Source: a phage
DNA: 64,000 nucleotides
Strand: one strand, 5' to 3'
Assembly (NCBI GenBank): GCA_022520065.1
Contig: GCA_022520065.1_3942.1
Of this stretch, positions 29,293 through 51,945 are shown piece after piece. Position numbers and translations under genes: made by a program. The notes beneath the pieces are model-generated. The model was not told the origin of the DNA and made no database searches. It worked only from the letters and a program-made list of their open reading frames with translations. How positions within the stretch are numbered: the first letter of the stretch is position 1; every line of letters starts with the position of its first letter.

Positions 29293-31437
29293 ATGAACAA
29301 AGTACAGATTATTAAAAAGAATGGCTCACTTGAAGAACCTGATATCAAAAAAGTTTTAGCAGCAGTAACTAAGTCAGCTAACAGAGTTGGTTATAAAGAG
29401 CTTCCACCAGATGTTACTCAAGCTCTTGAGTCAGCATTTATGAGGATTCTGGTAAAGTCCACTAAACAGAATAATTTGCTAATTTCTGTAAATGATATTC
29501 ACAGTATTGTTGAGGGTGCTTTGGCAGAAGTCAATCACGAGATTTATGAGTCTTACTCAACATATAGAAATTACCGTAAAGAAGTTGCTCAAAATTGGGA
29601 TGAGCTTTACCAGAAGACCAAAGATACACTCTTCTTAGGTGACCGAGAAAACGCTAATTTTGACAGCAGTTTAATTTCTACAAAAGGTTCAATTATTCGT
29701 GGTTATCTGACTAAAGAAATCTTTAAACAGTACCACTTAACACCAGAGGAACTTGAAGCCATTGAAAAAGGGTTTATCTATATCCATGATTTAAGAGACC
29801 TAATTTTTGGTGGTATCAACTGTTGCCTGTTTGACATTGGTAAAGTCCTGAAAGGTGGCTTTGAAATGTCTGGCATCGAATATTGTGAACCGAAGTCTGT
29901 ACTGTCAGCCTTACAGGTTATTGGTGATGTAGTTCTTTCAGCAACTGCACAGCAATTTGGTGGCTTTACTTTAGCAGAGATTGATAAGGTACTCATACCG
30001 TATGCTAAGAAGTCTCTACGCTATCATGCTGAGAAAGCAGCATCTTATGGTATTCCTAAAGAACATTACCACAATTATGTCATGGAGCAGCTACAGATTG
30101 AACTGACTCAAGGTTTCCAGTCACTTGAAATGAAACTAAACACTGTACCTTGTAGTCGTGGGGATTTTGCATTTACAACTTTAACATTTGGGTTGCTCGA
30201 CTCAGATATGTCTAATGAAGACAACCGACTACAATACATGATTGCAAGTACTCTCCTAGATGTTCGTATGAATGGACAAGGTAAGAGCAAGAAGCCTGTT
30301 GTATTCCCTAAACTGGTTTATATTTATGACCAGAAGAGACACGATGAGAATATCTGTCAAGGACACCTGTACAGTAAAGCTATAGAGTGTTGCTCTAAAG
30401 CGATGTATCCAGATTTCTTAAGTGTATCTGGTCATGGTGCTGTAGCAGAAGCTTTTGAGCGTTCTGGCAAGGTTATTTCGCCGATGGGTTGCCGAGCGTT
30501 CTTATCTCCGTATCTTAACGAGAATGGGGAAGAGTTCTACGTTGGTCGTGCTAACATTGGTGCTGTATCTTTGAACTTACCAATGATTTACCAGTATTCT
30601 AAAGAGAACGGTTTAGATTTCTGGAAAGAGCTTGATAAGTACCTAGAAATGATTCGCAGCTTCCACAAGAAACGTTACGAAATGATTGCTAATATGCCAG
30701 CAAGTTCTAACCCTCTTGCATTTACACAAGGTGGTCTGTATAAAGGAACTAAGAAGCCTACTGACAGGGTTGGCTGGGATATTGTGAAGTCCTTCACAGC
30801 TTCTTTTGGGGTTACTGCGCTTGATGAGTTATCTGTTCTTGCTGAAGGTAAACGACTTCATGAAGTTGGAAGCTATAGTTTTGCATACGATGTTCTGGCG
30901 TACATCAACATGAAAACTGAAGAGTTTAAAAATGAAGATGGTTTCTTATATGCAGTCTATGGCACTCCAGCAGAATCACTATGTGGGACTCAGCTAAAAC
31001 AGTTCAGAGATATGTTTGGGGTTATCAAAGGTGTTTCCGATAAGGAATACTTTACAAACAGTTTCCATATGAATGTTGTAGCAGACATCTCACCATTTGA
31101 GAAGCAGGACTTAGAAGAGCCATTCTTCCATATCTGTAGAGGCGGTAGAATCCAGTATGTAAGAGTAGCTAACCCAGAAAACTTATCAGCACTTAAAAGT
31201 TGTATTACTAGAGGGATGTTGAAGGGTTTTTATCAGGGACTTAACTTTGACTTAGCAATCTGTGAGCATTGTGGTAACAGACCAAAGGCTGATGTTGAAG
31301 AATGTGAGGTTTGCCATTCACATGACATCTCTGTGATTAACAGGGTGTGTGGTTATCTTGGATGGACTAAGATTAAAGGTGAATCACGAATGAATGATGC
31401 AAAAATCGCTGAGATTCGTGACAGAGTTTCTATGTAA
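29293..31437 (+). CDS. nrdD: anaerobic ribonucleotide reductase (class III)
   Basis: C-terminal Cys cluster CEHCG...CEVCH and glycine-radical motif RVCGYLG. Confidence 0.9.
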   Translation: MNKVQIIKKNGSLEEPDIKKVLAAVTKSANRVGYKELPPDVTQALESAFMRILVKSTKQNNLLISVNDIHSIVEGALAEVNHEIYESYSTYRNYRKEVAQNWDELYQKTKDTLFLGDRENANFDSSLISTKGSIIRGYLTKEIFKQYHLTPEELEAIEKGFIYIHDLRDLIFGGINCCLFDIGKVLKGGFEMSGIEYCEPKSVLSALQVIGDVVLSATAQQFGGFTLAEIDKVLIPYAKKSLRYHAEKAASYGIPKEHYHNYVMEQLQIELTQGFQSLEMKLNTVPCSRGDFAFTTLTFGLLDSDMSNEDNRLQYMIASTLLDVRMNGQGKSKKPVVFPKLVYIYDQKRHDENICQGHLYSKAIECCSKAMYPDFLSVSGHGAVAEAFERSGKVISPMGCRAFLSPYLNENGEEFYVGRANIGAVSLNLPMIYQYSKENGLDFWKELDKYLEMIRSFHKKRYEMIANMPASSNPLAFTQGGLYKGTKKPTDRVGWDIVKSFTASFGVTALDELSVLAEGKRLHEVGSYSFAYDVLAYINMKTEEFKNEDGFLYAVYGTPAESLCGTQLKQFRDMFGVIKGVSDKEYFTNSFHMNVVADISPFEKQDLEEPFFHICRGGRIQYVRVANPENLSALKSCITRGMLKGFYQGLNFDLAICEHCGNRPKADVEECEVCHSHDISVINRVCGYLGWTKIKGESRMNDAKIAEIRDRVSM

Positions 31438-33339: not shown

Positions 33340-33660
33340 ATGAGCAAAGTTTATAACACTCGTAAATTACAGATTTTCGTACTGTGCCAGTTTATGGCTA
33401 AAGAATACAACTTCTACTATTGTGGTACAGGTTTTATTAGCGATGATGATGGCTCATACCTCCCATTCAAAGAGGCTGTAAAACTCTTCAATGAAGAGAA
33501 AAGTTCTAAGAAAGATATTGAAAAGGTTAAGCTAACCTACAGCAAGAAAGATAAGAAGATTATCTGCCTAGATAACTTTGTGAAAGTTACTGGAGAAGCA
33601 AAAGAGTTTATGGATGAGAGTGAGATTTCATTCACAAGCATCTTGAAAGTAGCTCAGTAA
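33340..33660 (+). CDS. hypothetical protein
   Basis: 106-aa ORF. Confidence 0.4.
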   Translation: MSKVYNTRKLQIFVLCQFMAKEYNFYYCGTGFISDDDGSYLPFKEAVKLFNEEKSSKKDIEKVKLTYSKKDKKIICLDNFVKVTGEAKEFMDESEISFTSILKVAQ

Positions 33661-33711
33661 ACAGATACTATAAGGGGACTGTAAAGGTTCCCTTTTTATT
33701 TTGGAGGTAAA

Positions 33712-34227: not shown

Positions 34228-34498
34228 AGAAAAGTGGGAGATTTTACCATTAGTCAGTGAAGGAGGTAATGGTTGTGAAATGTACATGATACGTGGTCAT
34301 GTTCCAGAGCCAATTGCACTTGAGATGGTAAACAACTTTACAGATGGTTCTTACAAAGACTTAGGCGAACCAACTGTCAAGCAACAATGGGTTAAACCTG
34401 TACCAGACAGCACAGGTAACTGTAGTGTACTTTATCACGTTGTAGACCCTGCAAAATGCAAATCTGCAATGGCAGTAACAAACGTAACTTTTGATTGA
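34220..34498 (+). CDS. hypothetical protein
   Basis: 92-aa ORF. Confidence 0.4.
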   Translation: MAKEKWEILPLVSEGGNGCEMYMIRGHVPEPIALEMVNNFTDGSYKDLGEPTVKQQWVKPVPDSTGNCSVLYHVVDPAKCKSAMAVTNVTFD

Positions 34499-35391
34499 GA
34501 GAGAAAACTATGAAAACATCTATCCGTGTTACAGTTCATTCACCAACTAAAGGAACTCATGAAGAAGAGTTTAACATCATCCAATTTCCTTCTGGTGAGA
34601 TTGGTGGACACTTTTCGCCAGAGTTTGTTGATTTCACTGCTTATGCAGCATCATCCATCAACAATGTGATTATGATTGTAAAAGGTTATGATAAGGACAC
34701 TTTGTTTGCTGTGGCACTTGCTAAAGAAGCAATTGATGATTTAATTCCTCATGATTATGCTTTAAAGACTGTCATCTTTTACTACTTACCAAATGCACGT
34801 TATGACCGTCACATGTTTAAAGGCGACGCAGCAGCTTTAAAGGTTTTTGCTAAACAGATTAATGCAATGGGATTTGGCGCAGTCTGTGCAGTTGACCCTC
34901 ACAGCTATGTACCAGATAACCTGTTTAACTGCTTCCAGAGTATTCCTCAAAAGGAAATTGCAGTCCACTATGCAAATGACCCACTGATTGATTACTTAGT
35001 AGCCCCAGATGCAGGTGCTGCTAAGAAGATTGCAGAGACTGCTAAAGAGGTGGATAAACCATACATCACAATGTCTAAAGTGCGTAACCTTAAGACTGGT
35101 GAAATTACTGGTATGCGAATCCTTGATGATGTTGATTTGACAGATAAAACCGTCATGATTCTGGATGACATCTGTGATGGTGGTCGAACCTTCATAGAAG
35201 CAGCTAAGCATCTTCGTGAAGCAGGTGCAAAACGTGTGGAACTCTATGTAACACATGGTATCTTCTCTAAAGATGTTGAAAACCTTCTTGACAATGGCAT
35301 TGACCACATCTACACTACAAACTCTTTAGGGGAAGCTAAAGACCGTGGCTTAACACATTATAGCCAAGTTACTGTAGCAAACCTTGATTAA
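34495..35391 (+). CDS. PRPP synthetase-like pyrophosphokinase (Prs/Adps-like)
   Basis: PRPP-binding-type motif VMILDDICDGGRTF; paired with NAMPT-like gene. Confidence 0.7.
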   Translation: MREKTMKTSIRVTVHSPTKGTHEEEFNIIQFPSGEIGGHFSPEFVDFTAYAASSINNVIMIVKGYDKDTLFAVALAKEAIDDLIPHDYALKTVIFYYLPNARYDRHMFKGDAAALKVFAKQINAMGFGAVCAVDPHSYVPDNLFNCFQSIPQKEIAVHYANDPLIDYLVAPDAGAAKKIAETAKEVDKPYITMSKVRNLKTGEITGMRILDDVDLTDKTVMILDDICDGGRTFIEAAKHLREAGAKRVELYVTHGIFSKDVENLLDNGIDHIYTTNSLGEAKDRGLTHYSQVTVANLD

Positions 35392-35400
35392 AACTTTATA

Positions 35401-35421
35401 GGGGCTTAAAAGCCCCATTTT
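35401..35421 (+). terminator. hairpin with weak T-run
   Basis: GGGGCT-taaa-AGCCCC followed by ATTTT. Confidence 0.35.
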
Positions 35422-35436
35422 GAGAGAGATTAAAAG

Positions 35437-37218
35437 ATGACTAAATCACTTTATGCAGTACCAGCAGGTTTAAATGCAGATGCTTACAAATCTGGTCATG
35501 TTTACCAGTATCCTAGTGCAACAGAATATTTGATGTTCAACCTGACACCACGTAGCGACAAATGGTTTAACAGTCCATTAGCAATTGATGGTGTAGTCGC
35601 TTTTGGTATTCAACGTTTTGTTAAAGATTACTTGATAGACCACTGGAATGCTACGTTCTTTGAACGTGACAAAAAAGAAGCAATTGACGAAATCTTAGAA
35701 GTCATGAATGGTGTTCTGGGCAAAGATGCTATCGGTCGAGAGCATTGGGAAGCACTTCACGACTTAGGTTATCTACCAGTTGAAGTATACGCTGTAGAAG
35801 AAGGCACAGTTGTCCCTATGCGTGTTCCGATGATTGTTTTCCAGAACACTGTTTCAGGTTTCCATTGGGTAGCAGGTTATCTGGAAGATGCTTTCTCTGC
35901 TGAGATTTGGAAGGCTTGTACCATTGCAACTATTGCATTGCACTACAAACGTATCTGTAAGAAGTGGGCTGACCTTACTTGTGACAACGACTTGCATTTG
36001 CCTTATCAGTGCCATGACTTTGCTATGCGTGGTATGTCCGGCTTTACTGATGACGCATTTAACGCTGTAGGCCACTTAACCAGCTTTAAAGGAACTGATA
36101 GCTTCCCTGCTGTGTATACGGCTAAACGAATCTATGGACAGTCCTACCCAATCTCTGATATTGGTAGCTCTGTACCAGCCACTGAGCACTCTGTAATGTG
36201 TGCAAACATTGCTTGGGAAGGTGGTAATGAGTTGATTGAAGAAGAAAGACGCTTTAAAGGTGAGTTACAAACCTTCCGTCGTTTCTTAACAGAAACTTAC
36301 CCAACTGGTATTGCAAGTATTGTTTCAGATACTTATAACTTCTGGAGAACTGTGTCAGAAATCTTACCAGCACTCCGTAAAGAAATTATGGAACGTGACG
36401 GTAAACTGGTAATTCGTCCTGACTCTGGAGACCCTGTACATATTGTCACAGGGTACAAAGCAATCCATTTAGAGTGTGCTAAAAAGTCTTATTACGAACA
36501 CTTAAGCAAGCTTGAAGCCAGCGACACAATGTTGAATGCTGTTCTGAACATGAAGCTTGAAAACATCAATTATGGTATTGCTGGATGGCTACTGTCAGAA
36601 GGCTACGAAATGGTTGTTGACAGAGAAGACTTTGAAGTTGCTGATACAGTGCTGTTGAAAAACGCATATATGGTTGGTTCTGCAAACGTTGTAACACGTC
36701 CTGTAGCAGAGATTGATGGAGCTATTAAGACCTTGTATAACATCTTTGGAGGAACTATCAACTCTAAAGGTTTTAAGGTACTGGATGAACATATCGGCCT
36801 TATCTATGGTGACTCTATCACGTTGGAACGTGCAAACGAAATCCTGAAGCGTCTGTATGAAATGGGGTTTGCAAGCTCTAACGTGGTGTTTGGTGTAGGC
36901 TCTTACACTTACCAGTACATGACTCGTGACACCTTTGCATTTGCTGTCAAAGCAACTCTTGCAAGCATTGGTGGCAAAGAGATTATGCTTGCAAAAGACC
37001 CTAAAACAGATAGTGGTGTTAAGAAATCTGCCTTTGGTGGTGTAGCGCCTATGTGGGATGGTGATAAGTTGAAAGCTGTAGATGGCTACGGATTCCAGAG
37101 TTTTGCAGATGTACTTGACCACCCAGCTTGTGCTTTACGTTTAGTCTTTAGTGACTCTGAGCAGTTTGGTTACACAACTCTTGGTGATATTCGAAATAAT
37201 ATTGACAAGCAGCTTTAA
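35437..37218 (+). CDS. nicotinamide phosphoribosyltransferase-like enzyme (NAMPT/Namat-like)
   Basis: 593 aa; NAMPT-like GTDS motif (HLTSFKGTDSFPAV), family-level match by memory. Confidence 0.7.
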   Translation: MTKSLYAVPAGLNADAYKSGHVYQYPSATEYLMFNLTPRSDKWFNSPLAIDGVVAFGIQRFVKDYLIDHWNATFFERDKKEAIDEILEVMNGVLGKDAIGREHWEALHDLGYLPVEVYAVEEGTVVPMRVPMIVFQNTVSGFHWVAGYLEDAFSAEIWKACTIATIALHYKRICKKWADLTCDNDLHLPYQCHDFAMRGMSGFTDDAFNAVGHLTSFKGTDSFPAVYTAKRIYGQSYPISDIGSSVPATEHSVMCANIAWEGGNELIEEERRFKGELQTFRRFLTETYPTGIASIVSDTYNFWRTVSEILPALRKEIMERDGKLVIRPDSGDPVHIVTGYKAIHLECAKKSYYEHLSKLEASDTMLNAVLNMKLENINYGIAGWLLSEGYEMVVDREDFEVADTVLLKNAYMVGSANVVTRPVAEIDGAIKTLYNIFGGTINSKGFKVLDEHIGLIYGDSITLERANEILKRLYEMGFASSNVVFGVGSYTYQYMTRDTFAFAVKATLASIGGKEIMLAKDPKTDSGVKKSAFGGVAPMWDGDKLKAVDGYGFQSFADVLDHPACALRLVFSDSEQFGYTTLGDIRNNIDKQL

Positions 37219-37232
37219 AAGTATATGATAAG

Positions 37233-37254
37233 AGGCTCCTACGGGAGCCTTTTT
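37233..37254 (+). terminator. intrinsic terminator
   Basis: AGGCTCC-tacg-GGAGCCT followed by TTTT. Confidence 0.6.
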
Positions 37255-37271
37255 AATTTCTGGAGAAAACT

Positions 37272-37607
37272 ATGAAAATCAAAGAGATGAACATCAACAT
37301 TGTCTTAGAAGAACGTTGGGAGAACATCAATAAGCCTGAAGATGGCCATAAGTTTCTTAACAAAATTTTAGTAGCAGCTAAAGAAGAACTGACTGGCAAG
37401 GTCGCAGCAGCAATTACAATAAAGGTCTGCGTAAAAGGTCTTCCAGACAATCACCAATTTGCGCTTGACGAGTTTAAAAAAAGCTTCTACAATCCAAACA
37501 AACAGATACTTGAAAGTAACTTTGCAGTATCTACAAGTATCGTCCATGACAGAAGCTTTATCCTTTACAAGAATATGAGAGGTGAGTCATGCAAGCATAT
37601 TGGATAG
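37272..37607 (+). CDS. hypothetical protein
   Basis: 111-aa ORF. Confidence 0.45.
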   Translation: MKIKEMNINIVLEERWENINKPEDGHKFLNKILVAAKEELTGKVAAAITIKVCVKGLPDNHQFALDEFKKSFYNPNKQILESNFAVSTSIVHDRSFILYKNMRGESCKHIG

Positions 37608-44720: not shown

Positions 44721-45500
44721 ATGGGTATTGTAAAAGTTGTAAAAGGTAACTTACTGGCTGCCTTCAAAAACACAGATATTGAGTTAATTGCTCATGGTTG
44801 CAACTGTCGTAACCTCATGGGTGCTGGAATCGCTCAAAAAATTGCTAAGATTTTCCCAAAAGCTGAAGAAGCTGACCGGAAATTCCATAAAAAGTTTGGC
44901 TACAGTGCTCATGATATCGGATACCAGATGGTTGGTGAGGTGTCACATGCTCGAACGGAGTATGGTTACATTTTTAACCTATATACACAGTTGGATGTTG
45001 GGAAGTGTGCATCATACCGATACTTAGTGGAGTCACTAGAAAAACTCCGTAAATTTTGCTGGCTGCACAACATTCGTAAGATTGGTTTACCCATGATTGG
45101 GGCAGGTATAGGCGGTTTAGATGCACAAGCTGTGAAAAGCCTCATTAATAGTGTTATGTATAACGTTGATGTGTACCTCTACGTCTATGATGAAGCAATG
45201 GCAAGTGTAGTTACCCCTAAGTATGCTACCTCAGCACCACAATTCTATGATGGTGTCGTGCTAAGTGACGGGAAGACTAATCAAGTTACCCTCTATCAGC
45301 TTGTTGATGGCAAGGTTGAGGTTAGTTACCCTCTGGTTAGTGAGATGGGTATGTGTAACAGTGAAATGTTCCCAGTTGACCCGTTTGGAAGATATGAAGG
45401 GGTGTTCTTTGATAACTACCCAGCAGCATACATCTACACAACAAATCAGGATGAAGTTCACTACTTGCTGTATTCTAAAAAGTTCAAATTCATAAGCTGA
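44721..45500 (+). CDS. macro-domain (ADP-ribose-binding/processing) protein with C-terminal extension
   Basis: N-terminal DIELIAHGCNCRNLMGAGIAQKI and later IGLPMIGAGIGGLD match macro-domain glycine-rich motifs. Confidence 0.55.
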   Translation: MGIVKVVKGNLLAAFKNTDIELIAHGCNCRNLMGAGIAQKIAKIFPKAEEADRKFHKKFGYSAHDIGYQMVGEVSHARTEYGYIFNLYTQLDVGKCASYRYLVESLEKLRKFCWLHNIRKIGLPMIGAGIGGLDAQAVKSLINSVMYNVDVYLYVYDEAMASVVTPKYATSAPQFYDGVVLSDGKTNQVTLYQLVDGKVEVSYPLVSEMGMCNSEMFPVDPFGRYEGVFFDNYPAAYIYTTNQDEVHYLLYSKKFKFIS

Positions 45501-45896: not shown

Positions 45897-45925
45897 TTGA
45901 CTCTTTGAGTGTGGTTATCTAATAT
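45897..45925 (+). promoter_or_regulatory. type-A cassette promoter TTGACT-N17-TAATAT
   Basis: Followed by GC hairpin 45936-45956 and conserved leader ending GGAGATTCAAAAATG. Confidence 0.5.
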
Positions 45926-45988
45926 TTGCATCAACGGGGAGGGAATGACCTTCCCCACTAAATAAAGTCCTAAACTGGAGATTCAAAA

Positions 45989-46369
45989 ATGGCATATCGT
46001 GCACCTAAATTCATCAACAAAGACAACTTTCGCAACGCACTGGAGAAGTCACTTGATGAAAATTTTAAAGGTAACATTATCGTTGTTCACGCATTCAATT
46101 TTAAGTATGATATCAACGGGAATAAAATCAACCATTACACGGCAACCATGATAGATGGTACACTTTCAAGTGAAAAAGCCGTACTAAATGCACTTGCAGG
46201 ACGTGGAAAAAACCTGATAAGATGTGATAAGAGACGTTATCAGGGCGGCGCATATGGTTATGATGATGCTATTTATCATCTTGAAAATATGGGCTATCAA
46301 GTAGAAAAAGCTGGAGCATCACAAATCATCGGTAGTGATGGTTATGTAACTATCTTCAAAATTAACTAA
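45989..46369 (+). CDS. hypothetical small protein (array gene 1)
   Basis: ORF behind type-A cassette. Confidence 0.5.
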   Translation: MAYRAPKFINKDNFRNALEKSLDENFKGNIIVVHAFNFKYDINGNKINHYTATMIDGTLSSEKAVLNALAGRGKNLIRCDKRRYQGGAYGYDDAIYHLENMGYQVEKAGASQIIGSDGYVTIFKIN

Positions 46370-46458
46370 TAAAGTACTTTACAAGGGGCTTATAGTTCGA
46401 TAAAGTAAGCCCCAGATAAAGAGCTTTACTACTCAATCCTAAATTGGAGAACTAAAAA

Positions 46459-46716
46459 ATGGCTATTATCAAAAACGTTGTAATTGCTGCAAAAACTCGT
46501 GATGACGCTCGCGTTATGGCTAAAAAGTTATGCGGGAAAGTGGTTGACAACGGAAAAACATCTGCTGTAAGATGGGGCGTAAAGGCTGATAAACATTTAA
46601 TCTTAAAACATAGTTCAAATAACCTTTTTAAAGGTGTAAAATCACTCGGTAAAGTGAATGTTTTCACTAAACAAGGTTACAAAATGCACTTATCATTAAC
46701 TGGCAATTTAATCTGA
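46459..46716 (+). CDS. hypothetical small protein (array gene 2)
   Basis: ORF behind type-B cassette (hairpin 46385-46413). Confidence 0.5.
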   Translation: MAIIKNVVIAAKTRDDARVMAKKLCGKVVDNGKTSAVRWGVKADKHLILKHSSNNLFKGVKSLGKVNVFTKQGYKMHLSLTGNLI

Positions 46717-46804
46717 TAAAGTACTTTACAGGGGGCTTAAAAGCTGATACCTTAAGCCCCAGATAAAGAGCTTTACCAATCAATCCTAAACTGGAGATTC
46801 AAAA

Positions 46805-47317
46805 ATGAAAACTGTAGACGCTACCTTTGAAGTTGTAAAAGAAAAATTCACTATTATTTATGAAGCTGTCAATTGCTTTGAAGCAAGCCATAATCTTGAT
46901 AATTGGGAATTTACAGATGACCATCAAGGTGGTGTGACGATTAAAAATCCTAGCTGTCAGCGTAATGAATTTAAATATGCAATCCCTTTACATTACAGCC
47001 TTAAACAGCTTTCAAGTGACTATGCAAAACAAGGCCGGGCAAATCCATCAAAAGAGGCTTACATCAGCTTACAGAAAGAACTAGAAAGAGATTTAGAGGC
47101 TTCAGAATATAACATTGCCGCGAAAGTTGTAGATGCAAATGGCAGCACTGTTTTAGAAAGTTTTTATATTGGTTATGCTTTCGATTGGTGCTACAGTGAC
47201 GGCGATGATTTAGATGACAGGCTAAAAGAGGAAGTGAACAACGCAGACGCAGAATCTGAAGTATTAGAGCGCTTGGAAGCATTAAAAGATTCAGTGATGA
47301 ATATCTTTAAGAACTAA
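46805..47317 (+). CDS. hypothetical protein (array gene 3)
   Basis: ORF behind type-B cassette (hairpin 46731-46760). Confidence 0.5.
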   Translation: MKTVDATFEVVKEKFTIIYEAVNCFEASHNLDNWEFTDDHQGGVTIKNPSCQRNEFKYAIPLHYSLKQLSSDYAKQGRANPSKEAYISLQKELERDLEASEYNIAAKVVDANGSTVLESFYIGYAFDWCYSDGDDLDDRLKEEVNNADAESEVLERLEALKDSVMNIFKN

Positions 47318-47408
47318 ATAGATTTCTTTACACGGGGCTAACAAGCGGATATGATAGCCCCAGATAAAGAGATTTATCAAATTAACCCTTAAACTAGGAG
47401 ATTCAAAA

Positions 47409-47705
47409 ATGAAATTATCAAATAAAGTTAGGGAAAACCTTAGTAAATTACTCAATAAAATTGATTTTATTGAGACATCAAGAAATAGTCATGATGTTAT
47501 GGAATGGTTACATGGCAAAATAAAAGGCCGTCGTGTAGTAATTTGCTTATGGAATAGTTGCAGGGAGTATAAAAAACCTGTATTGCAAGTTAATATATAC
47601 GATGATACTTTTAAAAGTCCTGTAAAGTCTAAAAGCGATTTATTAGAATCTTATGAGATATCTGTAAGTGGCAAGGTATCACGTAAAGAGGAAACACCAT
47701 GTTAA
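47409..47705 (+). CDS. hypothetical small protein (array gene 4)
   Basis: ORF behind type-B cassette (hairpin 47334-47361). Confidence 0.5.
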   Translation: MKLSNKVRENLSKLLNKIDFIETSRNSHDVMEWLHGKIKGRRVVICLWNSCREYKKPVLQVNIYDDTFKSPVKSKSDLLESYEISVSGKVSRKEETPC

Positions 47706-48031
47706 TAACTGGCATTACTGCAATCATAGCCATTATAGCACTTTATAAGGCATATAAAGCCTATAATCTGGCAAGTAAGGCAATCACGCAGCAGGCTAGC
47801 AATAACCTTGTAGGGAGCTTTCTGGAGCGTTTAAGCGATGAGCAAATAAAGCGGCTAGAGATGAGCTTCAGATATAAAGCGAAAACCTATCAGATAAGTG
47901 ACATCTTCAAAGATGATTTTCAGTTAGTCGATGATTATAATTCTCTGATAAATGCTTTAAATGTCAGTGACTTAAAAAACTACTACGCTGTAATTGTTCA
48001 AGAATTGAGCAAACGAAAACAAAACTGTTGA
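47699..48031 (+). CDS. hypothetical small membrane-anchored protein (array gene 5)
   Basis: Hydrophobic N-terminus; AGAGGA RBS; overlaps gene 4 stop. Confidence 0.45.
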   Translation: MLITGITAIIAIIALYKAYKAYNLASKAITQQASNNLVGSFLERLSDEQIKRLEMSFRYKAKTYQISDIFKDDFQLVDDYNSLINALNVSDLKNYYAVIVQELSKRKQNC

Positions 48032-48056
48032 TACTGGTTTTTAGATAGATTAAATT
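48028..48056 (+). promoter_or_regulatory. type-A cassette promoter TTGATA-N17-TAAATT
   Basis: Followed by hairpin 48067-48086. Confidence 0.45.
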
Positions 48057-48119
48057 ACACATCAACGGGGAGGAAATGACCTCCCCCACTAAATAAAGTC
48101 CTAAACTGGAGATTCTAGA

Positions 48120-48392
48120 ATGTATACTACTAACAACGGTCGCACTTTAAATGTCACACTACGTCACTATGTAGATGGTGTCATGCACTTTGAAGATTTA
48201 CAAGCTGAACAACATATCTTAGATTGGCAAGTAGCAGGACTCCAAAAAACTGCTACGGGATACGGTAAAAAGATTCCAACCAGTTGGAAAGTTCACTATG
48301 AAGGACGTTTGCGCAGAATTTATCAAGATGTGCAAAGCAATAGCGCATCGAGTTACATTATAGTAAAAGGCAAAAAACTGCATTTAACGTAA
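48120..48392 (+). CDS. hypothetical small protein (array gene 6)
   Basis: ORF behind type-A cassette. Confidence 0.5.
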   Translation: MYTTNNGRTLNVTLRHYVDGVMHFEDLQAEQHILDWQVAGLQKTATGYGKKIPTSWKVHYEGRLRRIYQDVQSNSASSYIIVKGKKLHLT

Positions 48393-48478
48393 AGTACTTT
48401 ACAAGGGGCTTATAGTTCGATAAAGTAAGCCCCAGATAAAGAGCTTTACCACTCAATCCTAAATTGGAGAACTTAAAA

Positions 48479-48883
48479 ATGGCTATTAATAACCGTGAAT
48501 TATCAATCTTAAAAGCACGTTTGACCGTTAATCGAATCAACATTATGACATCATCAGCGCCTGATGAGACATTGCACAACATTATCGGAAAGATTCAAAG
48601 CGTTATTTTAGACGTTGAAAACGTAAAAAGCTCATTGGCTGACGTTGCAGCAGGTATCACACTAGATGGCGCACAATATGAAATGTCCGACATGTTAGGC
48701 AAATCAAAGGTAATGAATAAAGAGCTTGATTTAAAGATGTTCCGATTTGCTGTTAAAGTATGGCTATCCGTCGAGTATGACGCTAATTTTGCAATCGCTG
48801 ATTTCTTTGCCACTTGGTTACAACGTAATTTGACAAATCACGATTTTCGTGATGTCTGCGATGCAATTTATGCAGAACTCTAA
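48479..48883 (+). CDS. hypothetical protein (array gene 7)
   Basis: Track start 48464 is TTG; cassette-conserved ATG at 48479; type-B hairpin 48405-48433. Confidence 0.5.
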   Translation: MAINNRELSILKARLTVNRINIMTSSAPDETLHNIIGKIQSVILDVENVKSSLADVAAGITLDGAQYEMSDMLGKSKVMNKELDLKMFRFAVKVWLSVEYDANFAIADFFATWLQRNLTNHDFRDVCDAIYAEL

Positions 48884-48892
48884 AAAATTTTG

Positions 48893-48921
48893 TTGACACT
48901 GGTTTTTAGATAGATTAAATT
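48893..48921 (+). promoter_or_regulatory. type-A cassette promoter TTGACA-N17-TAAATT
   Basis: Followed by hairpin 48932-48951. Confidence 0.5.
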
Positions 48922-48984
48922 ACACATCAACGGGGAGGAAATGACCTCCCCCACTAAATAAAGTCCTAAACTGGAGATTCAAAA

Positions 48985-49188
48985 ATGGCTATTATTAATG
49001 GTTTAACCATTGAAACTACACACATCAAAGATATCAAAGTTGGCGATATAGTCCTTTCCCACGGCGTAGAAAAAACTGTCACTGCAAAGGATATCAAAGA
49101 GGATTTTTTCATGGGTAGGACTCTCTTCGGTGATTCTTATTGCTTAGGCTATCTTGCAGTTTTAAAAGTTGTCAAAAATAACAAATAA
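48985..49188 (+). CDS. hypothetical small protein (array gene 8)
   Basis: ORF behind type-A cassette. Confidence 0.5.
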   Translation: MAIINGLTIETTHIKDIKVGDIVLSHGVEKTVTAKDIKEDFFMGRTLFGDSYCLGYLAVLKVVKNNK

Positions 49189-49273
49189 AGTACTTTACAA
49201 GGGGCTTAAAAGTTGATAACTTAAGCCTCAGATAAAGAGCTTTACCACTAAATCCTAAACTGGAGATTCAAAA

Positions 49274-49816
49274 ATGAAATGTTATCACGGAACTACTCAA
49301 GAAAATTTCCTCAACCTGATTAATAACGGTGATAAACCATCAGGCGCATGGAATTGTTCGGATATGGACGGCAATTTTTACGTGTATCCAGAAAATAAAA
49401 TCTATGGCGACGATGATGAAGAGATAACATCGGAGGGCATTCAGCAAGCTCTAGGGAACGCCACTATTACGGCGGCCTTCCAGATGAAAACCCAAAATAT
49501 TGTTATCTTAGAACTCGATATTCCAGATGATGAGCTAAATGATGATTATTCTTGTGATAATATGTCGAGTGTAGCAAGTTTTACAGAGTACTTTGATGTA
49601 AACTGGATTAAAAAGGTCTATACAACAGAGTTTAACGCTATGTATTCGCCTTTTTGTCTTCCTTCACTGGATAACCCAAATATGAACTATCTTGATGAGA
49701 CATTAGAACTACTTGCTAAAAGTGTTCAACAGTCGGACAGTATTCAGGTTTTTTGTGACATCATGGATACACTGACAGGAAACATCGCAGAAGAGGATTT
49801 AAAGAGCTTTTTCTAA
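49274..49816 (+). CDS. hypothetical acidic protein (array gene 9)
   Basis: ORF behind type-B cassette (hairpin 49201-49229). Confidence 0.5.
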   Translation: MKCYHGTTQENFLNLINNGDKPSGAWNCSDMDGNFYVYPENKIYGDDDEEITSEGIQQALGNATITAAFQMKTQNIVILELDIPDDELNDDYSCDNMSSVASFTEYFDVNWIKKVYTTEFNAMYSPFCLPSLDNPNMNYLDETLELLAKSVQQSDSIQVFCDIMDTLTGNIAEEDLKSFF

Positions 49817-49848
49817 AAACCTATGCAATCACCTTATAAACACTATTT

Positions 49849-49868
49849 AGCCCCTTACAGGGGCTTTT
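49849..49868 (+). terminator. intrinsic terminator-like hairpin
   Basis: AGCCCC-ttaca-GGGGCT followed by TTTT. Confidence 0.45.
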
Positions 49869-49882
49869 GGGAGGCTTAAATC

Positions 49883-50116
49883 ATGCTTACAACCGTTTAC
49901 CTCATCCTTTCTATTTGTAACGGTCATTCATGCGATTTTAAAGGGCTTGAAGAGTTTACAGGAAGTAAAGAAAATGCTATTCAAGTTTGCCAGATAGCAA
50001 GACAAGACTATCCCGCTAGTGATGATATACAATGTTACTTTAAGACAGAAGATGAAGACGGTATCTATTTTGACAGCGTAGATGGTCAGTATGAAATTAT
50101 CATTGAAAAAGACTAG
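49883..50116 (+). CDS. hypothetical small protein (array gene 10)
   Basis: GGGAGG RBS 8 nt upstream of ATG. Confidence 0.45.
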   Translation: MLTTVYLILSICNGHSCDFKGLEEFTGSKENAIQVCQIARQDYPASDDIQCYFKTEDEDGIYFDSVDGQYEIIIEKD

Positions 50117-50142
50117 ACAAGCCTGATAAAAATCTGTAAATT
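50114..50142 (+). promoter_or_regulatory. type-A cassette promoter TAGACA-N17-TAAATT
   Basis: Followed by hairpin 50153-50173. Confidence 0.4.
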
Positions 50143-50207
50143 GTCAATCAACGGGGAGGGAATGACCTTCCCCACTAAGTACAATCCTTAAACTAGGAGA
50201 TTCAAAA

Positions 50208-50549
50208 ATGGCTTATGTAACCGTAATTACCGATAAAGAAAATTCATCTTGGTCAACTCAAGTAAGTGATAAGATGTCACCTATGCAGTGCCTAAAATAC
50301 TTTGAACAGTGGAACAAAGGCGAGGACACAAGCCCCTTTCAAGTGATGCAGATTATCCATGTAGATAACGAAGGGAATAAAACGGTTTTAAATAGTGAGT
50401 ACTACGCAAGCCATTTTGAAACGAGAAGTAAAACAATGAAGCTTTTACGTGAATCCGGTTATGCCCATATCGCCGCGTTAATCTGGGATGACCTGCTAAA
50501 AAACCAACGTATCAGCTATGTAAAACCTGAAAAAATATTCATCAGTTAA
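50208..50549 (+). CDS. hypothetical protein (array gene 11)
   Basis: ORF behind type-A cassette. Confidence 0.5.
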   Translation: MAYVTVITDKENSSWSTQVSDKMSPMQCLKYFEQWNKGEDTSPFQVMQIIHVDNEGNKTVLNSEYYASHFETRSKTMKLLRESGYAHIAALIWDDLLKNQRISYVKPEKIFIS

Positions 50550-50581
50550 TCAATAACTTACAAAAAACTTTTAAAAAAATG

Positions 50582-50600
50582 TTGACAATACCCCTTGACA
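50582..50600 (+). promoter_or_regulatory. tandem TTGACA element (weaker copy of 15666/61883 motif)
   Basis: GTTGACAAtaccccTTGACA. Confidence 0.3.
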
Positions 50601-50678
50601 TTGGTAACTTTGTTCGAGGGGGTTTATCTAAAAGGGATTCACTTAAAAGATTCTTTATAGATAAGCTCAAAAAATTAC

Positions 50679-50708
50679 TTGCAATCAACTATCAAAACAA
50701 GTAAATTA
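50679..50708 (+). promoter_or_regulatory. type-A cassette promoter TTGCAA-N17-TAAATT
   Basis: Followed by degenerate hairpin 50718-50737. Confidence 0.4.
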
Positions 50709-50769
50709 CTAATCAACGGGAAGGCAATAACCTCCCCACTAAATAAAGTCCTAAACTGGAGATTCTAAA

Positions 50770-51300
50770 ATGAACAAATTTCAAGCTATCAACTTCATTC
50801 GTTCAAATGCTGTAATGTCTAAGCCTGTAAAAGATACATACGAATTCCGTTGTAATGGGGTACATTTCGCAACAATCACCAAATCAGAAAACGGGGCTTA
50901 TTACGTTCATCGTCGTAATGTTTCAACCGTTGTAGTCTCTCACTTTATGCAAGCTGTAGCGGAATTATTACCGTTATTCTTAGAGATTTACTTAGATGAG
51001 TGTAAAAACGTTCACAACCACGTTAAAAGCCTTTTAAACGGTTATAAAATGGCTTATGAACGCTCTATCAAGTCCTTAAACAAGTTTTACAATGCACCTG
51101 CAAATACTGTTTCAATGGCTTATGATGTAAACGGTGAGTTAGTTAGTCTCTTTGAAGTGGAAGAAATTAAGCTGTATAATTTACGTCCTAGTGGTTACTC
51201 TAAGACTCTTGGTGAAGGTTTATCCTTTAATATCAAGAACTTAGAAAAAACTTTAAAAGACATTGAAAAAGATATTGACGAGACAATCAAAAGTCTGTAA
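50770..51300 (+). CDS. hypothetical protein (array gene 12)
   Basis: ORF behind type-A cassette. Confidence 0.5.
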   Translation: MNKFQAINFIRSNAVMSKPVKDTYEFRCNGVHFATITKSENGAYYVHRRNVSTVVVSHFMQAVAELLPLFLEIYLDECKNVHNHVKSLLNGYKMAYERSIKSLNKFYNAPANTVSMAYDVNGELVSLFEVEEIKLYNLRPSGYSKTLGEGLSFNIKNLEKTLKDIEKDIDETIKSL

Positions 51301-51303
51301 ATT
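51275..51303 (+). promoter_or_regulatory. type-A cassette promoter TTGACG-N17-TAAATT
   Basis: Lies within 3' end of gene 12; followed by hairpin 51314-51334. Confidence 0.45.
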
Positions 51304-51366
51304 GTCAATCAACGGGGAGGGAATGACCTTCCCCACTAAATAAAGTCCTAAACTGGAGTTATCAAG

Positions 51367-51630
51367 ATGGAAAACGTAGAATTAACCACACTTTTACAAA
51401 TTGCAACCGACAAAGAGAACGTAGCTTTATTTCACCGCATCGAAAGTGATTTGTTCAATGGTGAAATCATCAAAGAGTCTTACGAGGTTGTTGGATTCAA
51501 AGATGGTAAAACATTTGGATTCTTTGACCTCGAAAAAGGCAACGCTGTTACAAAATATGATGTTTTATCTTGTGAGATTCTTACAAGATACAACGAAAAA
51601 AGGCTTGCAACATACGCCAATATGCAGTAA
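51367..51630 (+). CDS. hypothetical small protein (array gene 13)
   Basis: ORF behind type-A cassette. Confidence 0.5.
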   Translation: MENVELTTLLQIATDKENVALFHRIESDLFNGEIIKESYEVVGFKDGKTFGFFDLEKGNAVTKYDVLSCEILTRYNEKRLATYANMQ

Positions 51631-51633
51631 ATT
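51605..51633 (+). promoter_or_regulatory. type-A cassette promoter TTGCAA-N17-TAAATT
   Basis: Followed by hairpin 51644-51661. Confidence 0.4.
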
Positions 51634-51696
51634 ACTAATCAACGGGAGGCGATAACCTCCCCACTAAATAAAACCCTTAAACTAGGAGATTCAAAA

Positions 51697-51945
51697 ATGG
51701 CAACTATCCGCGCTACTGTTAACGAGTTCGGTTTTTCCTCTCTGGATGTTAAATTTGACATTGCAGGCACTGATAACGCCTTTGAAATGGTGAAAGGTCT
51801 TATCAGTCAGACCATCAAAGATTATAATCCTTCGGATGAGTTCTGGGAGGAAACAAAACAAGAAGTTCTCAAGGATGGTTATACTTATCACTATTGGGGA
51901 GAAAAAATCGTCTCCCTGTACTACAACAAACAAGATTATAACTAA
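51697..51945 (+). CDS. hypothetical small protein (array gene 14)
   Basis: ORF behind type-A cassette. Confidence 0.5.
   Translation: MATIRATVNEFGFSSLDVKFDIAGTDNAFEMVKGLISQTIKDYNPSDEFWEETKQEVLKDGYTYHYWGEKIVSLYYNKQDYN

Follow-up and report, generated by a model that had tools for sequence, protein, structure and literature searches.

The question raised by this locus is what a phage does with two neighbouring genes, one for a Prs-like pyrophosphokinase and the other for a NAMPT-like transferase: do they run classical salvage through PRPP and NMN, or do they rebuild NAD+ from ADP-ribose (ADPR) and nicotinamide as a NARP1 pair? An earlier note, made from the sequence alone, had put forward a NARP1-type Adps/Namat pair as a candidate and had considered the choice between the two routes undecidable from sequence. 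The candidate was borne out, as the pair is a syntenic orthologue of Bas63 genes 79–80 and carries the published sequence discriminators, while the reservation proved too cautious. NARP1 is favoured over classical salvage because of this orthology together with the published Adps and Namat motifs, which decide the matter at the level of predicted activity. We consider it about 95% probable that adps-namat is the two-gene NARP1 operon of a Felixounavirus. NARP1 is here an already known system, orthologous to its founding example, and represents no new biology.

The window, i.e., the whole stretch of 64,000 nt that was analysed, belongs to a Felixounavirus (an E. coli phage of the Felix-O1 type) and is collinear with Escherichia phage JohannRWettstein (Bas63, MZ501086); a tRNA scan across its full length found none. 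The adps/namat region is 96–97% identical at the DNA level to many Felixounavirus genomes. Both genes lie adjacent on the + strand with a gap of 45 nt, and the Prs-like (298 aa) and NAMPT-like (593 aa) genes noted previously were found again as ORFs with Pfam support. We place adps, coding for the Prs-like pyrophosphokinase Adps (ADP-ribose pyrophosphate synthetase), at 34510..35391 (+, 293 aa from ATG) and namat, coding for the NAMPT-like Namat (nicotinamide ADP-ribose transferase), at 35437..37218 (+, 593 aa from ATG). The length of 298 aa for the first product comes from a mechanical ORF call with a TTG start (34495..35391, +), which was rejected, as the TTG shares nucleotides with the stop codon that ends the preceding gene. 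Judging from the sequence context, the ATG at 34510 is probably the start, since the purine-rich ribosome-binding site GAGAGAG (34497..34503, +) precedes it by 6 nt and since it matches the annotated start of the Bas63 orthologue; GAGAGAG also precedes namat.

The pair is probably part of a four-gene transcription unit running from a promoter/terminator module at ~33643–33694 to the intrinsic terminator that closes it directly 3' of namat (37230..37253, +). This terminator, already noticed in the first reading of the DNA, was recovered by the scanner as a 10-bp stem followed by a T-run, and folds at −16.6 kcal/mol (z = −4.2), with 0 of 200 shuffles folding equally well. Inside the proposed unit a weak hairpin splits the two genes, a GC hairpin with a short U-run in the intergenic space (35401..35421, +) that was seen in the sequence and by RNA folding and is conserved in Bas63. 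Its stem-loop, GGGGCU-UAAA-AGCCCC at 35401–35416 and followed by AUUUU (−11.5 kcal/mol, z = −2.6), has just 4 T, too few for the terminator scanner to call it; it may serve as a weak or partial terminator, or as an element that affects RNA stability.

Bas63 genes 79–80 (bas63_0079-0080) are the founding example of NARP1 (Osterman et al., 2024; bioRxiv 10.1101/2024.02.11.579819). The phage studied here is of the same genus, and its pair likewise lies between the nrdG block and rIIA, with the same gene order and spacing and the same intergenic hairpin; in Bas63, a small additional gene (bas63_0081), absent here, follows namat directly. When Bas63 79–80 was deleted, plaque numbers on SIR2-HerA hosts fell ~20-fold; rescue was still seen in a ΔpncC ΔnadR host, and ADPR-PP (m/z 720.010) was seen only when wild-type Bas63 met the defence system (bioRxiv 10.1101/2024.02.11.579819). 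The biochemistry was done on SpβL1, ICP1, DyoEdafos and Gary proteins and on no Felixounavirus protein, the Bas63 Adps having purified poorly (bioRxiv 10.1101/2024.02.11.579819). [quoted passage not shown] By its sequence relationships, this allele would be expected to share these activities and the anti-defence phenotype of Bas63 79–80.

The first enzyme has the two-domain pyrophosphokinase fold of the Prs/PRPS family (PF00156 Pribosyltran, E 1.3e-11; PF14572 Pribosyl_synth, E 4.5e-10; PDB Prs matches from E 2.8e-18). It scores 327 bits against phrog_619 (E 1.8e-97); Adps proteins validated by experiment reach 243–287 bits there, and E. coli Prs 193. Its identity is 78% to Bas63 Adps, a query used to define the Adps clade, versus 23% to E. 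coli Prs (b1207), and the characterised Adps of ICP1, Gary and DyoEdafos are 29–34% identical to it.

The labels suggest a bona fide PRPP synthetase that produces PRPP from ribose-5-phosphate (R5P), paired with a NAMPT/NadV enzyme making NMN that host NadR or PncC would convert to NAD+: database names as well as Pfam and PHROG labels read ribose-phosphate pyrophosphokinase and nicotinamide phosphoribosyltransferase. Adps also passes the broad subfamily model TIGR01251 (124.8 vs. 113 bits), the only NCBIfam model that it passes. However, the Prs equivalog models all fail by a wide margin, at 41–105 bits against cut-offs of 296–536; the best is NF002095 (104.6 vs. 296), the others reaching 41–64 against 438–536. 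The orthologous Bas63 operon, moreover, rescues without pncC or nadR and accumulates ADPR-PP in vivo, and the SpβL1 homologue, which makes ADPR-PP in vitro, gave no measurable Prs-type product.

The residues of Adps point the same way. The Adps-type PP loop, DDI[C/S]DG..[S/T]F in place of the DDMIDTGGT of Prs, appears here as DDICDGGRTF, next to DDICDGAASF in ICP1, DDISDGGASF in Gary and DDICDGGGTF in DyoEdafos, versus DDMIDTGGTL in E. coli Prs. With it, the DTGGT loop by which Prs binds the R5P 5-phosphate has become DGGRT. In the ICP1 Adps structures the catalytic beta-hairpin Lys is K185 (K162 in SpβL1) and the acceptor residues are R87, H121, D161, D212, D213, and D216 (PMC13586617). All of these align with identical residues here (K185→K190, R87→R97, H121→H131, D161→D167, D212/D213→D219/D220, D216→D223), as does F18 (→F26). 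Two positions depart from this pattern: the adenine contact F92 of ICP1 is replaced by Met both here and in Bas63, and PP-loop position 226 is Arg instead of Ala/Gly. Loss of the C-terminal alpha11–alpha12 filament/regulatory module of PRPS is an Adps trait (PMC13586617), and in our alignment this Adps lacks the module and ends level with other Adps proteins, E. coli Prs having internal and C-terminal segments beyond them.

The second enzyme belongs to the NAMPT family (PF04095 NAPRTase, E 6.5e-35; a weak match to PF18127 NAMPT_N; phrog_448, E 6e-202) and is nearly the same protein as Bas63_0080, with 587 of 593 residues identical (99%). The characterised Namat of SpβL1, ICP1, DyoEdafos and Gary are 37–46% identical to it (SpβL1 37–38%). 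Its best PDB sequence matches are the Namat structures 9w5w/9w5x, and the AF2 model (pLDDT 93.7) has Namat 9w5x as its best fold match (TM 0.95), ahead of NadV and NAMPT. The 20 NAD+-contact positions of the SpβL1 crystal structure all align, 16 of them with identical residues and four with replacements (S190→A196, A362→S460, F392→Y490, and R40→K42). The catalytic core is conserved as D15, Y17, F195, R198, D221, R327, D329 and H251, whose SpβL1 equivalents are D13, Y15, F189, R192, D215, R306, D308 and the catalytic His (PMC12774641).

Two further motifs concern the adenine side of the substrate. The SCH adenine clamp, defined as GSXΦ1XΦ2XΦ3TRD with aromatic X (PMC12774641), is specific to Namat and is present as GSYTYQYMTRD (aa 488–498), which speaks against a NAMPT/NadV-type partner for Adps. 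The SCL is TPRSDKWF; its stacking residue is described as Arg at position 3, or as Lys/Tyr followed by the stacking residue, with the Bas63 W modelled in that role (PMC12774641). SpβL1 stacks through Arg40 and this Namat through K42-W43, exactly as in Bas63. The earlier note had suggested an active-site comparison, and the Adps PP loop and catalytic Lys and the Namat SCH/SCL are of the NARP1 type. Classical salvage draws some further support from Namat homologues, which make NMN from PRPP in vitro as a side activity (PMC12774641; bioRxiv 10.1101/2024.02.11.579819), and by analogy this Namat may synthesize some NMN alongside NAD+. Nevertheless, we reject Prs plus NAMPT salvage and regard it as very improbable, given the failed equivalog cut-offs, the divergent PP loop and C-terminus, and what is published on Bas63 genetics.

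As a NARP1 operon, the pair would act on the products of NAD+-depleting defences (SIR2-HerA/Nezha, type I Thoeris, DSR1/2, SEFIR, and similar), which cut NAD+ to ADPR and nicotinamide. With ADPR-PP supplied by Adps, Namat would exchange the pyrophosphate for nicotinamide and yield NAD+ directly, without NMN or the host NadR/PncC. These steps are those of the published mechanism, carried to this pair by orthology.

Comparison with other known systems is consistent with this assignment. With SpβL1 (PDB 9w5w/9w5x), ICP1 and DyoEdafos the pair has in common the catalytic Lys, the acceptor Asp/His/Arg and the Adps-type PP loop, the Namat catalytic core and SCH clamp, and adjacent co-oriented genes. 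NARP2, the Nampt and bifunctional Nmnat/Nudix of Vibrio phage KVP40, likewise restores NAD+ during NAD+-depleting defence with a homologous NAMPT-family enzyme, but its Nampt falls in a separate clade, in phages without Adps, and it works via PRPP and NMN with no use of ADPR. Here an Adps gene lies directly 5' of namat, Namat has its SCH motif, and the collinear Bas63 stretch has no gene annotated as Nmnat. NARP3 (the PnuC-like and NadR-like proteins of Bas30) serves the same NAD+-restoring purpose by importing nicotinamide riboside, again with no use of ADPR. The cellular Prs and NadV/NAMPT have the same folds and the same class of chemistry, pyrophosphoryl and then phosphoribosyl-type transfer; they differ, however, in the PP loop and the alpha11–12 module of Prs and in the adenine clamp, which belongs to Namat.

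The N-terminal half of this Adps is a mosaic allele. Compared to Bas63_0079, 229 of 293 residues are identical, with 95% identity over aa 181–293 and 68% over aa 1–180; the RF loop and the Phe that binds adenine come from the latter half, which differs to that extent from the tested Bas63 allele. At the DNA level, identity to Bas63 falls from 92–97% to 65–78% over 34520–35019 and then recovers. Felixounavirus records contain two Adps allele classes, ~155 at no less than 90% identity to this allele and 91 at 60–80%. The sharp boundary in both DNA and protein and the existence of two classes might suggest that the NARP1 chemistry takes a different input here, the divergent N-terminus shifting acceptor preference or regulation relative to Bas63, e.g., to another ADPR derivative, but this is the least credible of the readings, given that all mapped acceptor and catalytic residues are common to both alleles (F26, R97, M102, H131, D167, and K190), that the allele of this phage is the commoner one and always adjoins the conserved Namat, and that recombination among related phages is a simple explanation of the mosaic.

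Namat contains an undescribed but confidently folded insertion of ~75–90 aa relative to the characterised Namat (~aa 340–427; 36454..36717, +), besides a smaller one of ~15 aa (aa 258–278). The larger, delimited from alignment gaps, is a lineage-variable domain without counterpart in the SpβL1, ICP1 and DyoEdafos Namat, and among homologues the segment can be as short as 18 aa or as long as 101 aa. AF2 models it as a small alpha/beta unit (pLDDT >92). Searches with aa 338–430 gave no match among PDB sequences and only a sub-threshold DUF4528 in Pfam (E 0.048), and a fold search with the whole Namat matched only Namat and NAMPT. The insertion might add regulation or partner binding.

A hypervariable, fast-diverging Macro-domain protein is encoded 7.5 kb downstream of the pair (44721–45500) and is the only Macro protein found. 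Its fold is like that of Poa1p, TARG1 and DarG, and a further, beta-rich domain at its C-terminus gave no match of its own; the protein is homologous to Adpp, the validated NARP1-AP phosphatase, and falls in the same PHROG as the Adpp of Gary. In NARP1-AP, Adpp is a Macro-domain ADPR-1''-phosphate phosphatase, and the published survey screened ±2 genes of the operon (Osterman et al., 2026, preprint). Vibrio phage Gary, with its Adps-Adpp-Namat operon (Osterman et al., 2026, preprint), has the same two core enzymes, but its Macro gene is within the operon, whereas here it is outside and has the additional C-terminal domain. In the two genes upstream and the three downstream of the pair, Pfam recognised no domain, neither Macro (Adpp) nor RyR/RyDEP nor any other, so that the Macro Adpp within two genes of the operon that defines NARP1-AP is absent. 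Felixounavirus, Bas63 and wV8 do not occur in the supplements of the aRES/NARP1-AP paper. We tentatively raise, as an unlikely extension, a split pathway in which the Macro protein would act in trans to free ADPR for Adps from ADPR-1''-phosphate, the product of RES-type NADases such as aRES, or from other modified ADPR. Such an arrangement would be missed by the published survey because only two genes on either side of the operon were screened.

Database records still carry the names ribose-phosphate pyrophosphokinase and nicotinamide/nicotinate phosphoribosyltransferase for these proteins; Adps and Namat can confidently take their place. Felixounavirus is a well-studied, therapy-relevant phage genus, and the predicted consequence for this member is resistance to defences that cut NAD+ to ADPR and nicotinamide. 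The mosaic Adps, the Namat insertion and the Adpp-like Macro protein may bear on the extent of the NAD+ arms race, and a split pathway, if true, would give Felixounaviruses a breadth like that of NARP1-AP.

Some 50 kb of the window are collinear with Escherichia phage JohannRWettstein (Bas63, MZ501086), and the 2.7-kb region comprising the window's Prs-like and NAMPT-like genes (hereafter adps and namat) shows 96–97% identity to many Felixounavirus genomes (e.g., LF82P2, wV8, or HY02). The Bas63 counterparts are bas63_0079 ("ribose-phosphate pyrophosphokinase") and bas63_0080 ("nicotinamide phosphoribosyltransferase"), and it was with these genes 79–80 that NARP1, a phage pathway of NAD+ reconstitution, was discovered (Osterman et al., bioRxiv 10.1101/2024.02.11.579819). 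Orthology to this genetically characterized operon, together with the published discriminating motifs described below, supports the proposal of the earlier note that the pair is of the NARP1 type, and we put the probability that it encodes Adps (ADPR to ADPR-PP) and Namat (ADPR-PP and nicotinamide to NAD+) at about 95%. The same two lines of evidence make the alternative, a classical PRPP/NMN salvage pair working through the host nadR/pncC, very unlikely. The NARP1 of the window is an already known one, from the same genus as the discovery of the pathway.

In the published experiments, Bas63 without genes 79–80 plated ~20-fold lower on SIR2-HerA cells and its NAD+ recovery was abolished, ADPR-PP (m/z 720.010) was detected only when wild-type Bas63 and the defense system were combined, and the rescue by Bas63 was still seen in a ΔpncC ΔnadR host (bioRxiv 10.1101/2024.02.11.579819). 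In vitro, the Adps of SpβL1 converted ADPR and ATP to ADPR-PP with no measurable Prs-type product, and its Namat formed NAD+ from ADPR-PP and nicotinamide, preferring ADPR-PP to PRPP (bioRxiv 10.1101/2024.02.11.579819). The enzymatic activities of the window's own allele, as we infer them, would be those of Adps and Namat.

Both genes appear in the ORF list on the plus strand as originally described, adps at 34495..35391 (TTG start, 298 aa) and namat at 35437..37218 (ATG start, 593 aa), but the length of the first product did not stand. Its translation most likely begins at ATG 34510, giving 293 aa, since this codon is preceded by GAGAGAG and is also the annotated start of the orthologue; TTG 34495, which shares bases with the stop of the preceding gene, was rejected. 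The adps product contains PF00156 (phosphoribosyltransferase) and PF14572 (Prs-associated) and belongs to phrog_619 ("ribose-phosphate pyrophosphokinase," E 1.8e-97), while the namat product contains PF04095 (NAPRTase family) with a weak NAMPT_N match and belongs to phrog_448 ("nicotinamide phosphoribosyl transferase," E 6e-202). The terminator reported directly after the pair is real, being called by the terminator scanner at 37230–37253 and folding at -16.6 kcal/mol (z = -4.2, none of 200 shuffles as good). A weaker hairpin followed by AUUUU lies between the two genes (35401–35416, -11.5 kcal/mol, z = -2.6) and is kept in Bas63.

A promoter-like site abuts a terminator-like hairpin at 33643–33694 and again at 37202–37253. 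Both sites are sigma-70-like, and they adjoin the hairpins in such a way that transcripts from there would be without the full hairpin. The two modules would bound a putative unit with adps-namat last, and the layout suggests four genes, adps and namat being preceded by those for an HNH-like protein (171 aa) and a protein of unknown function (92 aa). In both the window and Bas63 the pair is located between the nrdG block and rIIA; however, the small gene bas63_0081 that follows namat in Bas63 is missing from the window, a difference due to a 342-bp indel at 37266–37274, directly past the NARP1 terminator. Upstream, the anaerobic ribonucleotide reductase gene nrdD (29293–31437, 714 aa) is uninterrupted, whereas in Bas63 it is split by a ~745-bp insertion with the homing endonuclease bas63_0068 (window site 30490–30494). 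Further downstream (~45900–51700) there is an array of small ORFs with repeated intergenic elements of ~60–110 bp, which match each other and the equivalent Bas63 region at 78–98% identity and presumably represent promoter/terminator modules that recur in the early region.

Sequence rules have been published together with structures for the Adps of phage ICP1 (PMC13586617) and for Namat (PMC12774641). In an alignment that includes E. coli Prs and the characterized Adps of ICP1, Gary, and DyoEdafos, the window Adps retains the catalytic lysine (K190) as well as F26, R97, H131, D167, and D219/D220/D223. Its PP loop, DDICDGGRTF, is of the Adps type and differs from the DDMIDTGGTL of Prs, and the C-terminal Prs module is missing. 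All NCBIfam equivalog models for Prs missed their cut-off by a wide margin, the broad subfamily TIGR01251 being the only Prs model passed, and the phrog_619 score was 327 bits, compared to 243–287 for validated Adps and 193 for E. coli Prs. Another family, phrog_12872 (547 positions, labeled nicotinamide phosphoribosyl transferase), matches Adps with its N-terminal part and Namat with its C-terminal part, a layout which suggests that some phages encode a fused Adps-Namat protein.

The window Namat is identical to Bas63_0080 at 587 of 593 positions. Its top PDB sequence matches, 9w5w/9w5x (E about 1e-128), were confirmed as SpβL1 Namat because their chain agrees, at 20/20 ligand-contact positions of the search alignment, with the residue given in the structure paper. 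All 20 NAD+-contact residues align between SpβL1 and the window and 16 are identical, with S190→A196, A362→S460, F392→Y490, and R40→K42 as replacements. The window sequence GSYTYQYMTRD conforms to the Namat-specific SCH motif (GSXΦXΦXΦTRD), and the SCL loop, TPRSDKWF, is the same in Bas63, for which the adenine-stacking residue was modeled as the one following Lys (PMC12774641). The AlphaFold2 model (mean pLDDT 93.7, 49 homologues) had the Namat crystal structures as best fold match (TM 0.95), above HdNadV and mammalian NAMPT. Felixounavirus Namat exceeds the SpβL1, ICP1, and DyoEdafos proteins by about 100 aa, with a main insertion of ~75–90 aa (aa ~340–427, window 36454–36717) and a smaller one of about 15 aa (aa 258–278), both missing from crystallized SpβL1 Namat. 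The main insertion is modeled as a confident small alpha/beta unit, at a site whose length ranges between 18 and 101 residues across Namat homologues; it had no match in Pfam or PDB sequences and is not mentioned in the structure paper (PMC12774641). Chromosomal "nicotinate phosphoribosyltransferases" of 495–496 aa from Klebsiella, Cronobacter, Kosakonia, Phytobacter, and Erwinia (P0069–P0085, P0114) show 40–48% identity to the window Namat and contain the SCH motif as GSxTYQYNTRD, in line with published reports of NARP1 homologues in bacteria.

Two in-operon extensions of NARP1 have been published, Adpp, a Macro-domain ADPR-1''-phosphate phosphatase acting against aRES (the NARP1-AP of Vibrio phage Gary), and RyDEP, a RyR-domain glycosidase. 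Neither a Macro nor a RyR gene was found by Pfam adjoining the window pair. A 259-aa Macro-domain protein (PF01661, 28.9 bits vs. cut-off 22) is encoded 7.5 kb downstream of namat (44721–45500, plus strand); it shares phrog_335 with the validated Gary Adpp and aligns to it by BLASTP (E 2e-13). In its AlphaFold2 model (pLDDT 90.6) the N-terminal domain matched the DarG, TARG1, and Poa1p macrodomains about equally, and all listed PDB matches cover ~155–180 aligned columns, roughly the length of a macrodomain; these are reported without aligned ranges, and none was seen that is attributable to the beta-rich C-terminal part (aa ~170–259). It is 41% identical to its Bas63 counterpart while the flanks are ~90% identical, and its allele was found at ≥95% in only 13 phage records, the remaining matching records all being <60%. 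The published NARP1-AP survey covered two genes on each side of NARP1 and Felixounavirus was not found in its tables, so a functional link to a distal gene would go unnoticed. Such a link is nevertheless speculative and in our view improbable, as phages lacking NARP1, e.g., T4-like phages, commonly carry this family as well.

Compared with its Bas63 counterpart, adps is a mosaic, the DNA identity being 65–78% over 34520–35019 and 92–97% in the flanks. At the protein level (229/293 identical), identity is 68% over aa 1–180 and 95% over aa 181–293, and the mapped functional residues are all common to both alleles. Among Felixounavirus phage records, ~155 have an allele at least 90% identical to that of the window and 91 fall at 60–80%. 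Felixounavirus thus has two classes of Adps N-terminal allele in circulation, the window having the commoner one, and the genetically tested Bas63 allele is therefore the minority form.
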